Positions 20,588 to 34,097 of a stretch of 64,000 nucleotides of DNA are shown piece by piece. Position numbers and translations under genes: made by a program. The notes under the pieces were generated by a model. It made no database searches. It was not told where the DNA came from and was given only the letters and a program-made list of their open reading frames with translations. The stretch is from contig JADZGC010000004.1 in NCBI GenBank assembly GCA_020854115.1, forward strand, positions 65,665-129,664, written 5' to 3'. Within the stretch, counting starts at the first letter, position 1. The number at the start of each line of letters is the position of its first letter. Source of the stretch: a bacterium (lineage in GTDB: Bacteria; Patescibacteriota; Saccharimonadia; CAILAD01; GCA-016700035).

Positions 20588-20617
20588 TTGACTTACCTTT
20601 AGGAGATCAGGTAAAAT
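20588..20617 (+). promoter_or_regulatory. rRNA (16S) promoter TTGACT-N18-TAAAAT
   Basis: ttgact 20588-20593, taaaat 20612-20617; ~310 nt upstream of 16S. Confidence 0.5.
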
Positions 20618-20777
20618 CCTCTCTAGTAGCTTTTATTGTAGAAGCAACAAAAATACATCGGTTCCGCTCCGGCGAAAAATCCAAAAAAGAATCGCCACTC
20701 AGGAGCCATATTTTTTGACACATCTTGTGGTGTGTATGTAGATCCGATTGGATTGAATTTTACGAACAGCTACGATC

Positions 20778-20802
20778 TTTGACAAGTGAAACGTGTCAGT
20801 TC
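20778..20802 (+). other. 16S leader half of putative RNase III processing stem (pairs with 22640-22663)
   Basis: tttgacaagtgaaacgtgtcagttc is complementary (22 WC + 1 GU of 24) to gagctgacacgtttcactggtcaa downstream of 16S. Confidence 0.6.
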
Positions 20803-20929
20803 AACTTAAAAAAGTTTTAAAGTTGTTTTGTATTCGTCTAGATGACAGGATTACATGCATTTCGAGTCTTCACTGTTGGCTCGAAAGCATTCCAAGATAA
20901 CAGTGAAATGATTCTTTGAATCATTTGTG

Positions 20930-22456
20930 TATGAGAGTTTGATCCTGGCTCAGGATGAACGCTGGCGGCATGCCTAACACATGCAAGTCGTACGCGATCA
21001 CTTTTTTCGCTCGCAGGTGCTGAATAGTATTATTCCGCCGTTGCGAGCGGAACTCATAAAGTGATTGAGTGGCGGACGGGTGAGTAACACGTTGGTACCT
21101 GCCCTAGAGTGGGGAATAATTCACCGAAAGGTGGACTAATACCCCATAGTCTCCGGTTTATCCGGAGTAAAGCTTCGGCGCTCTAGGAGGGGCCTGCGTT
21201 TGATTAGCTAGTTGGCGGGGGAAAGGCCCACCAAGGCGACGATCAATAGCTGGATCGAGAGGTTGACCAGCCACACTGGGACTGAGATACGGCCCAGACT
21301 CCTACGGGAGGCAGCAGTGAGGAATCTTCCACAATGGGCGCAAGCCTGATGGAGCAATGCCGCGTGCAGGAAGACGCTTTTCGGAGTGTAAACTGCTTTT
21401 CTGAAGGAAGATTATGACGGTACTTCAGGAATAAGGATCGGCTAACTACGTGCCAGCAGCCGCGGTAATACGTAGGATCCAAGCGTTATCCGGAATTACT
21501 GGGCGTAAAGCGTGCGCAGACGGTTTGGTAGGTCTTATGCGAAATCCGGTGGCTCAACCACCTGGACTGTATGAGAAACCCCCTGACTCGAGGTCGGTAG
21601 AGGCAAGTGGAATTTCTGGTGTAGGGGTGACATCCGTAGATATCAGAAGGAACACCAATGGCGAAGGCAATCCCCTGGGCCTGTACTGACGCTCATGCAC
21701 GAAAGCGTGGGGAGCAAACAGGATTAGATACCCTGGTAGTCCACGCCGTAAACGATGATCACTAGTGGTATGGGGCTTCGACCCCCTGTGTCACGAAGCT
21801 AACGCGTTAAGTGATCCGCCTGGGGAGTACGAACGCAAGTTTAAAACTCAAAGGAATTGACGGGGACCCGCACAAGCGGTGGAGGATGTGGTTTAATTCG
21901 AAGCTACGCGAAGAACCTTACCGAGGCTTGACATCCCAGGAAGTCAGTCGAAAGACAGATGTGCCTTCGGGAACCTGGTGACAGGTGCTGCATGGCCGTC
22001 GTCAGCTCGTGTCGTGAGATGTTGGGTTAAGTCCCGCAACGAGCGCAACCCTTGTCGTCTGTTGTCTTTTCAGGCGAGACTGCCCGGGCCAACCGGGAGG
22101 AAGGTGGGGATGACGTCTGGTCAGCATGGCCCTTACGCCTCGGGCCACACACGTCCTACAATGGGTAGTACAATGGGCAGCCAAGTCGTAAGACGGAGCA
22201 AATCCCATCAAAACTACCCCCAGTTCGGATAGAGGGCTGAAACTCGCCCTCTTGAAGTCGGAATCGCTAGTAATGGCGCGTCAGCATAGCGCCGTGAATA
22301 CGTTCCCGGGTCTTGTACACACCGCCCGTCAAATCACGAAAGTTGGGAGTGCCCGACGTGCCGCCTAAAGCGCGGCCCTAAGGTAAGCCCAGCGATTGGG
22401 GTTAAGTCGTAACAAGGTATCCGTACCGGAAGGTGCGGATGGATCACCTCCTTTCT
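20930..22456 (+). rRNA. rrs: 16S ribosomal RNA
   Basis: agagtttgatcctggctcag near 5' end; ...ggatcacctcctttct at 3' end; universal 16S blocks (gtgccagcagccgcggtaata, aaactcaaaggaattgacgg, ttgtacacaccgcccgtc). Confidence 0.95.
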
Positions 22457-22664
22457 AGGGAGAAAGCTGACAGGTAACTGTTTTGGCGCCTTGAGTGCCA
22501 ACAGACCGTGATTGGTTCGAGCTAAAGAGCTTGCTCTTTGTGCTCACCACACATCATGACTCTGGCTATCCTAGGTCGATCGTTCACTTTTTATGAACGA
22601 TTCCTGTCATCTTGGATACAACACTTTAGCTTTTCTATCGAGCTGACACGTTTCACTGGTCAAT

Positions 22665-33500: not shown

Positions 33501-33780
33501 TTCGGTCCCTATCTGGTGTGGGCGTATGGAAAATTGAGGAAAGTTGCTCCTAGTACGAGAGGACCGGAGTGAACGAACCTCTGGTGTACCGGTTGTCGCG
33601 CCAGCGGCATGGCCGGGTAGCTATGTTCGGACGGGATAAGCGCTGAAAGCATCTAAGCGCGAAGCCTCTTCCAAGATTAGTTTTCCCCATTAGGCTCGTT
33701 ATAGACTATGACGTTGATAGGCGCTAGGTGTACGCACAGTAATGTGTTCAGCCGAGGCGTACTAATAGCCAATTGACTTT
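30597..33780 (+). rRNA. rrl: 23S ribosomal RNA (about 3.18 kb including a ~260-nt expansion)
   Basis: 5' gggttacgaagagcacatgaggaatgccttg...; conserved blocks throughout (ggggaactgaaacatctaagta, ctaaggtagcgaaattccttgtc, gggataacaggct, tagtacgagaggaccgg); 3' ...gtactaatagccaattgacttt. Confidence 0.95.
30870..31140 (+). other. ~260-nt expansion/intervening segment in 23S domain I with no counterpart in E. coli 23S
   Basis: Lies between conserved gcgagcgaaacggg...cccaaact and gttagtggaaggcgcctggaaagg; hairpin-rich (ccttcatttatgaagg); no ORF. Confidence 0.5.
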
Positions 33781-33947
33781 TTCTTTGCGTGACATTGTGT
33801 GATGAATTCGTTCTTCATACAAGTCACAGCATGAGACGGCTAACACGCTCTTGAAGAGTGTTGTCGAAATAAGTCACGTTTGTATCTTATTCTCTATGTG
33901 TGCCAATGAGCATCGATCTGGTAGCTTTGATTTACATTGAGGAGACA

Positions 33948-34058
33948 TCGGACCGGTGCTTATAGCGAAGAGGTTCCACCGGTTCCCATCCCGAACACCG
34001 AAGTTAAGCTCTTCTGCGGCGATGATACTGCTCTGCGGGAAAGTAGCGCGGTGCCGGA
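33948..34058 (+). rRNA. rrf: 5S ribosomal RNA
   Basis: tcggaccggtgcttatagcgaagaggttccaccggttcccatcccgaacaccgaagttaag...gggaaagtagcgcggtgccgg. Confidence 0.9.
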
Positions 34059-34068
34059 TTTATCATGA

Positions 34069-34097
34069 AGACCAGGTCTTAGCCTGGTCTTTTTGTT
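34069..34097 (+). terminator. Intrinsic terminator after 5S (AGACCAGG-tcttag-CCTGGTCT + T5)
   Basis: 8-bp stem, 6-nt loop, TTTTTGTTTTT. Confidence 0.7.

Follow-up and report, generated by a model that had tools for sequence, protein, structure and literature searches.

The ribosomal RNA (rRNA) locus described here lies in a bacterial DNA stretch of 64,000 nucleotides (contig JADZGC010000004.1 of assembly GCA_020854115.1), called the window below. It consists of a 16S unit and a 23S-5S unit about 8 kb apart. One gene each for 16S, 23S and 5S rRNA was found in the window with Rfam, all on the + strand, and the gap between 16S and 23S is 8136 bp (22454 to 30591 in Rfam coordinates). Apart from these and two tRNA genes lying between the units, no rRNA or tRNA gene was detected in the 64 kb with Rfam and ARAGORN. 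GC skew is positive over the entire window, and the rRNA genes are therefore on the leading strand. Between 16S and 23S, four genes or groups of genes are antisense to the rRNA: the gene for a membrane protein of 85 amino acids (aa), a transposase gene, the tRNA pair and uppS. A first-pass annotation of this DNA had described an rRNA operon split in two by intervening genes. The split was confirmed almost base for base: the positions and separation of the three rRNA genes agreed with the Rfam matches, and the list of intervening genes with gene calls and domain searches (Table 1).

Relatives were collected with a UppS scan (one genome per species). Loci, cited below by L numbers, were taken from ENA, JGI, NCBI and Logan assemblies, and their RNA genes were mapped with BLAST and Rfam. 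The closest UppS loci belonged to Candidatus Saccharibacteria metagenome-assembled genomes (two close loci), and UppS homologues of 64-82 % identity form a clade. The entire layout is carried by L001 and L009, with 16S-23S gaps of 5.9 kb and 6.0 kb (L009 on a 141-kb contig). Their gene order is 16S, a convergent small membrane gene, antisense tRNA-Ile and tRNA-Ala, PrsW/ferric-reductase/dienelactone hydrolase (DLH) genes, antisense uppS, 23S and 5S. L011 (645-kb contig) shares the gyrA-hypothetical gene-DUF212-16S-small gene-tRNA side. The junction of uppS with 23S found in L001 and L009 was also present in L002, L007, L008, L024, L025, L026 and L027. A metagenome scan with DUF212 gave homologues at most 49 % identical and no close relatives for the 16S flanks; it yielded the distant locus L021 (16S 79 % identical by BLAST). 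Complete 16S flanks were compared in three genomes and complete 23S flanks in four.

The 16S unit would run from a promoter through a leader of ~300 nt and the 16S gene to a trailer that pairs with the leader, and end at a bidirectional terminator. By consensus scan, a promoter-like site was recovered where the first-pass annotation had placed the 16S promoter. Counterparts were found in the DUF212-16S intergenic region of L009 (TTGACA-N18-TAGAAT) and L011 (TTGACA-N18-TAAACT), and in L021 (TTGACA-18-TATGCT), the 18-nt spacer being the same in all three. The proposed complementarity of 16S leader and trailer was found as an outer helix with 20 of 21 positions paired. A helix test permitting G-U pairs could not discriminate and a Watson-Crick-only test was used in its place. 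With at most one mismatch, the longest 16S helix was 21 long, against a maximum of 14 in 200 dinucleotide shuffles. Pairing reaches inward almost to the mature ends (20778-20923 with 22457-22664), beyond the extent first described. The outer helix is kept in L009 (19/21 pairs, two of them changed on both sides) and in L011 (20/21 pairs, four changed on both sides). The bidirectional terminator reported after 16S was recovered as well. Its hairpin can end both the 16S unit and the convergent 85-aa gene, since it is preceded by an A-run and followed by a T-run. In each of the four genomes that include this region (window, L001, L009 and L011), the 16S trailer helix is directly followed by an A-run, a G+C-rich hairpin and a T-run, and the stem sequences differ.

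The 23S-5S unit would start at its own promoter, continue through a conserved structured leader with a boxA-like sequence into a 23S gene enclosed by its own helices, and end with 5S and a terminator. The promoter-like site upstream of 23S was kept in 7/7 distinct sequences. The inner 23S helix (~30550-30584 with 33833-33866) matches the leader/trailer pairing given by the first-pass annotation, and an outer helix (~30457-30489 with 33870-33898) adds to it. Long leader/trailer helices were folded from all four genomes with complete 23S flanks (window, L001, L009 and L010), the L010 sequence being largely different. The duplex-energy z-score of the 23S leader/trailer pairing was -4.0. Leader and trailer are thus complementary and enclose the mature ends of both large rRNAs, as expected of substrates for RNase III-type processing, which these helices may well be. 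The case is strong for 16S; for 23S it rests on the energy z-score and on conservation in four genomes. The terminator predicted after 5S was recovered, and a hairpin with a T-run also lies 3' of 5S in L001, L009 and L010.

We consider it likely (probability about 0.85) that the window holds the single rRNA gene set of a small-genome member of Saccharibacteria (TM7, Candidate Phyla Radiation (CPR)), in which separate transcription units replace the classical 16S-tRNA-23S-5S operon. Direct support comes from the gene positions, from the layout in independent assemblies, from helices and a terminator kept through compensatory changes, and from the match to published loci. The antisense tRNA-Ala/tRNA-Ile pair would form a further unit between the two rRNA units. 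Three features suggest independent transcription: the terminator after 16S is conserved, several intervening genes are antisense, and 23S has a conserved promoter-like site upstream.

Table 1. Features of the split rRNA locus (positions in the window; +, strand of the rRNA genes)
Feature	Position	Strand	Details
Promoter-like site of 16S unit	20588-20617	+	TTGACT-N18-TAAAAT, 10/12 consensus matches
Outer 16S helix, 5' arm	20779-20799	+	20/21 pairs with 22643-22663
16S rRNA gene, single copy in window	20927-22454	+	RF00177, 1485 bits, model positions 1-1533
Outer 16S helix, 3' arm	22643-22663	+	Pairs with 20779-20799
Bidirectional intrinsic terminator	22667-22695	both	Hairpin and T-run, consensus scan
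85-aa two-helix membrane protein	22719-22976	-	Orthologues adjoin 16S in L001, L009, L011
Lineage-specific insertion, 2.46 kb	22993-25451		IS481-like element and 62 %-GC open reading frame
IS481-like element	~23457-24523		Transposase 23463-24431 on - strand; rve/HTH domains
206-aa open reading frame, 62 % G+C	24616-25236	+	AAGGAG ribosome-binding site; true start 24616
tRNA-Ile(GAT)	25452-25528	-	Rfam, ARAGORN
tRNA-Ala(TGC)	25562-25638	-	Rfam, ARAGORN
PrsW-family protease, Pro-rich membrane protein, ferric-reductase-like flavoprotein, DLH	25779-29432	+	Pfam
uppS (undecaprenyl diphosphate synthase)	29446-30141	-	Pfam; divergent from 23S unit
Promoter-like site upstream of 23S	30223-30252	+	TTGACC-N18-TACCAT, TG one base before -10 hexamer
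23S leader element	30273-30396	+	Structured domain, terminator-like hairpin, boxA-like sequence
5' arms of 23S helices	30457-30584	+	Outer ~30457-30489, inner ~30550-30584
23S rRNA gene, 3195 nt	30591-33785	+	Rfam
3' arms of 23S helices, in 23S-5S spacer	33833-33898	+	Inner 33833-33866, outer 33870-33898
5S rRNA gene	33952-34059	+	RF00001, 84.3 bits
Intrinsic terminator of 23S-5S unit	34067-34092	+	Consensus scan

The first-pass annotation attributed the split to insertion and/or rearrangement. Comparison with relatives supports insertion and rearrangement inside a former 16S-23S spacer, and shows that the break is not an event in this genome: the separation of 16S and 23S predates the clade of the window and is a clade-wide state. 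The term accessory, applied to the intervening genes, does not hold either, as their synteny is kept across the clade (the four-gene block from PrsW to DLH lies between the tRNAs and uppS in L009, L024 and L026 too) and only 22993-25451 was recently added. In L021, DUF212, 16S, tRNA-Ala, tRNA-Ile and 23S follow one another on one strand, with a spacer of ~1 kb. From such a state, the spacer would have grown as the PrsW/ferric-reductase/DLH block, and uppS from its former site, came to lie between the tRNAs and 23S; the tRNA pair would have been inverted in place; and the IS-bearing insertion (IS, insertion sequence) would have been added in this genome alone. This order of steps is our reconstruction. 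On their own strand, the tRNAs of the window read Ala, then Ile, antisense to the rRNA genes. Because L021 has tRNA-Ala before tRNA-Ile, a simple inversion in place would account for the pair, and Ala-then-Ile is thus the normal order in the group. Relative to the rRNA, the tRNAs have the same orientation as in the window in L001, L009, L011 and L024 (tRNA-Ala only in L024), and the pair is co-directional with 23S in L026 (6143-6478) and L021. The orientation of the spacer tRNA pair thus varies inside the clade.

The place of uppS beside 23S is derived, because more distant Saccharibacteria (UppS at most 61 % identical) keep the gene within the widespread rpsB-tsf-frr-uppS-rseP neighbourhood. 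In the clade of the window it departed from that neighbourhood and now stands head to head with 23S; the observation draws on the window together with loci L012 and L013. The clear departure of uppS could also be taken to mean that translocation of the 23S-5S unit to a site beside uppS, or a large inversion, caused the split in place of stepwise insertion into the spacer. There is more shuffling around uppS and 23S in the clade (L010, L011, L028-L030), and IS elements flank both units in the window. We nevertheless regard such an origin as unlikely. Apart from the inversion of the tRNA pair, the window matches the contiguous L021 locus in the order and strand of its 16S, tRNA and 23S genes, the tRNAs still lie between 16S and 23S, and the DUF212-16S junction is common to the window and L021. 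At this position, oral Saccharibacteria carry different genes (pyrD; PMC7651992), suggesting that insertions into the spacer happened more than once.

In L021 (10431-13060), terminator-like hairpins follow both 16S and the tRNAs, and each unit has a promoter-like site in front of it. These consensus matches in L021 hint that transcriptional uncoupling may have preceded physical separation.

The 16S and 23S genes of the window keep their order and strand, the PrsW-to-DLH block is co-directional with them, and some authors still write of a ribosomal operon for the Saccharibacteria locus (PMC7651992). The locus could accordingly be one very long operon, with the 16S promoter reading through leaky signals to 23S-5S. 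This is highly improbable. The 16S trailer helix is directly followed by a strong terminator that has been preserved through compensatory changes, and 23S has a conserved promoter-like site of its own. Any RNA reading through would run antisense to uppS, the tRNAs and the 85-aa gene. In L010, L007 and L011 the 16S and 23S genes are more than 10 kb apart or separated by other gene sets. The processing helices do not decide the matter. In the linked rrn operons of Escherichia coli, each of the two large rRNAs lies within a helix of its own. Since linked operons have separate helices, those of the window are no proof of autonomy by themselves and were probably retained and not newly evolved. Of the two origins left open by the first-pass annotation, which had written of processing signals evolved or retained by each half, retention is thus the simpler.

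Several points weigh against separate units derived from a former operon. The promoters and terminators are consensus matches, and promoter rules for CPR bacteria are not established. The comparison covers a handful of genomes, and L021, being distant, may not represent the true ancestral state. In the ungapped test, the 23S helix reached 13-14 against a shuffle maximum of 12-13, marginally above chance; the test is marginal because the 23S helices contain G-U pairs and bulges. Finally, the presumed 23S leader contains a terminator-like hairpin, which fits poorly with a simple scheme of one promoter driving 23S.

An assembly error at the rRNA genes of this metagenome-assembled genome, either a misjoin of the 8-kb segment or the collapse of a repeat, has a negligible chance of being true. 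Contigs of such genomes often break at rRNA genes, and among the UppS-bearing contigs of relatives many measure only 1-6 kb and stop within 23S. Yet the synteny check named beforehand found the same layout in independent assemblies, which excludes a misjoin for practical purposes, as the junctions DUF212-16S-85aa, tRNAs-PrsW block, uppS-leader-23S and 23S-5S-terminator recur there (on contigs that include 141 kb, 645 kb and 701 kb), the sequence across the junctions is collinear with L001, and each rRNA gene is single-copy in the window, leaving no repeat to collapse.

Comparable loci have been described in oral isolates of Saccharibacteria, where tRNAs and one to five proteins, in varied orientations, lie between 16S and 23S (Murugkar et al. 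2020, PMC7651992). This spacer holds, beside 16S, a "79aa protein" specific to the phylum, and in many cases pyrD (PMC7651992). A third spacer tRNA, tRNA-Val(TAC), and pyrD as a spacer protein are stated for most oral taxa, the content being variable (PMC7651992). A non-contiguous rRNA operon has been reported for TM7x in a 2025 preprint (PMC12424978). The window resembles the oral loci in having 16S and 23S on the same strand several kb apart, a small membrane protein beside 16S, tRNA-Ala(TGC) and tRNA-Ile(GAT) in that order between the two genes, and a few spacer protein genes (one to five in the oral loci) in varied orientations. The 85-aa family (window and three orthologues) was aligned with the published 79aa alignment with hhalign (probability 89.5 %, E 1.9e-6, 61 aligned columns; PMC7651992 supplement). 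By this profile match, the 85-aa protein, which lies between 16S and the tRNAs, is probably a homologue of the 79aa protein. The loci differ in the rest of their content. Most oral taxa have tRNA-Val and pyrD, whereas the window has PrsW, ferric-reductase-like, DLH and uppS genes; no tRNA-Val was found between 16S and 23S, nor elsewhere in the 64-kb window.

Unlinked rRNA genes are reported to be common in Patescibacteria/CPR (Brewer et al., bioRxiv 10.1101/705046; Lui et al. 2021, PMC8172020). The spacer of 8136 bp is far above the 1500 bp beyond which 16S and 23S are called unlinked (bioRxiv 10.1101/705046). In the scheme of Lui et al. 2021 the locus falls into type D (unlinked by distance), with the 85-aa gene, the transposase gene, the tRNAs and uppS on the - strand. 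As in other CPR bacteria with unlinked genes, the genome is small and the rRNA copy single. Some CPR genomes have separations of hundreds of kb; in the clade of the window the distance is only 6-8 kb, and order and strand are kept. Both Saccharimonadia genomes of Lui et al. were scored operonic (PMC8172020), and the clade is a further case in a class where the unlinked trait varies. The classical examples of 16S apart from a 23S-5S unit are Helicobacter, Buchnera, Wolbachia, Mycoplasma gallisepticum and Borrelia (PMC8172020, PMC12424978). They share with the window this division and a reduced or host-associated genome, but their genes are usually far apart, whereas those of the window remain neighbours with the old spacer tRNAs between them. 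The split layout is established for the phylum and common to the relatives, and hence ordinary for the lineage. By itself it adds little: one more environmental Saccharibacteria clade with the known expanded, gene-filled 16S-23S spacer. It has practical effects, as long-amplicon 16S-ITS-23S methods (ITS, internal transcribed spacer) will miss these organisms (PMC12424978) and their assemblies tend to break at rRNA genes. The spacer behaves as a landing zone, with gained genes, inverted tRNAs and a recent IS, and the old helices and terminator were kept throughout.

The least expected feature of the locus, and the one that may repay further work, is the conserved element in the 23S leader. It is present in seven distinct genomes and occupies the stretch from the promoter-like site to just before the 23S processing helix. 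It starts with a domain of ~90 nt (30273-30361) closed by a long stem, the strands of which carry two copies of the palindrome CACGCGTG. A hairpin with a U-run follows (30349-30386); its stem varies among genomes yet stays paired, and its 5' arm overlaps the 3' strand of the long stem. The element ends with the boxA-like TGCTCATTGACA (30385-30396). Another boxA-like sequence, GATCTTTGACAAG (20774-20786), overlaps the 5' arm of the outer 16S helix. In E. coli, boxA (TGCTCTTTAACAA) precedes both 16S and 23S. The two motifs of the window resemble it and are present in most, not all, relatives. Like E. coli rrn, the window has each large rRNA bracketed by a long flank helix, with the boxA-like GATCTTTGACAAG upstream of 16S and the boxA-like TGCTCATTGACA upstream of 23S. 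Unlike E. coli, its halves have separate (predicted) promoters and terminators, and the 23S leader has extra structure and a terminator-like hairpin. We know of no counterpart of these last two features.

The fold of the leader element in the window had a z-score of -4.07. With RNAalifold, 25 consensus pairs were obtained, three of them with changes on both sides; such changes are few because the long stem is almost invariant. No Rfam match was obtained at E up to 10 in 30140-30600, nor at E up to 5 in L024 and L026. A covariance model (R1) was then built from the seven distinct sequences and searched against the window and 26 loci. It matched only upstream of 23S and no further copies were found.

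Several simpler identities were considered for this element and rejected. The conserved TTGACA at 30391-30396 might have served a second 23S promoter as its -35 box. A -10 box at a suitable distance is not conserved, and the processing helix starts ~12-25 nt past the U-run in L009, L024 and L010, which leaves little room for another promoter; the second promoter was rejected on both grounds. The frame of a small open reading frame (GTG at ~30296) is shifted by indels between relatives. Mimicry of rRNA came down to short matches at chance level that are not conserved in other variants. A 5' untranslated region of uppS on the - strand is unlikely, as the element of L010 stays with 23S and uppS is 4 kb off beyond two genes. 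What is left is a leader with a leaky or regulated terminator, or a small RNA gene followed by an unrecognised promoter; the element may be either. We tentatively propose, against the odds as we judge them, that 30273-30396 might be a cis-regulatory attenuator tuning 23S-5S independently of 16S, or a new small RNA gene of ~125 nt. As an attenuator, the long P1 stem would compete with the downstream terminator hairpin, and a ligand, a protein or a folding event would set how much transcription continues into 23S-5S. As a small RNA gene, it would share the promoter region of 23S. If the element is a regulator, it bears on how cells with unlinked rRNA genes balance 16S and 23S output.

The insertion at 22993-25451 corresponds to only ~100 nt in the closest relative L001, the rRNA genes of which are 95-99 % identical to those of the window. 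The IS481-like element and the high-GC open reading frame are therefore a recent addition. The element carries 19-nt inverted repeats (23460-23478 and 24502-24520). The best NCBIfam match of its transposase is IS481 (NF033577) with 163.7 bits, below the curated cut-off of 224. A target-site duplication was sought in the sequence and none was convincing; no second copy of the element was found in the window or in related loci. The 206-aa protein belongs to a large family of hypothetical proteins of ~200 aa, with one named member from the actinobacterium Glaciibacter (49 % identity). Inverted repeats of 40 nt (23209-23248 and 25411-25450) bound the insertion; the right-hand copy adjoins the 3' end of tRNA-Ile. 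A third copy of this repeat forms a 19-bp hairpin at 23165-23248. A truncated transposase of the IS1595 family lies just past the 5S terminator (34224-34652), and the 12-mer AGCCCCGCCGCC occurs only twice in the window, at 23125 (past the 16S unit) and at 34175 (beside the IS1595 fragment). These copies and the IS1595 fragment may be what is left of IS ends.

Two surface-protein genes (Big_7, fn3) are inserted between uppS and 23S in L010. Large surface-type proteins (Big_7, fn3, beta-helix/NosD) were seen beside uppS or between uppS and 23S in L010 (6155-9853), L011 (1-5451) and L030 (1-7543), and the uppS/23S neighbourhood appears to be a recurrent insertion site. In the window, uppS could be called as a longer open reading frame with a TTG start, which reaches 30363 and overruns the conserved 23S leader element. 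This is probably a spurious over-call: the Pfam domain begins at residue 88 of the long frame, so the real start is probably Met-75 at 30141.

The 23S gene of the window is ~270 nt longer than the bacterial model. Around 30873-31079, an insertion of ~196 nt at model positions 279-289 folds into a long hairpin (z -4.8). Around 32556-32645, ~86 nt lengthen the hairpin found at model positions 1762-1766, with a sequence that is not the one of L001. These may be expansions kept in the mature rRNA or intervening sequences that are cut out. Open reading frames of 134 and 249 aa were also seen inside 23S on the - strand (32000-33075). Both are almost certainly false calls that annotation could mistake for proteins.

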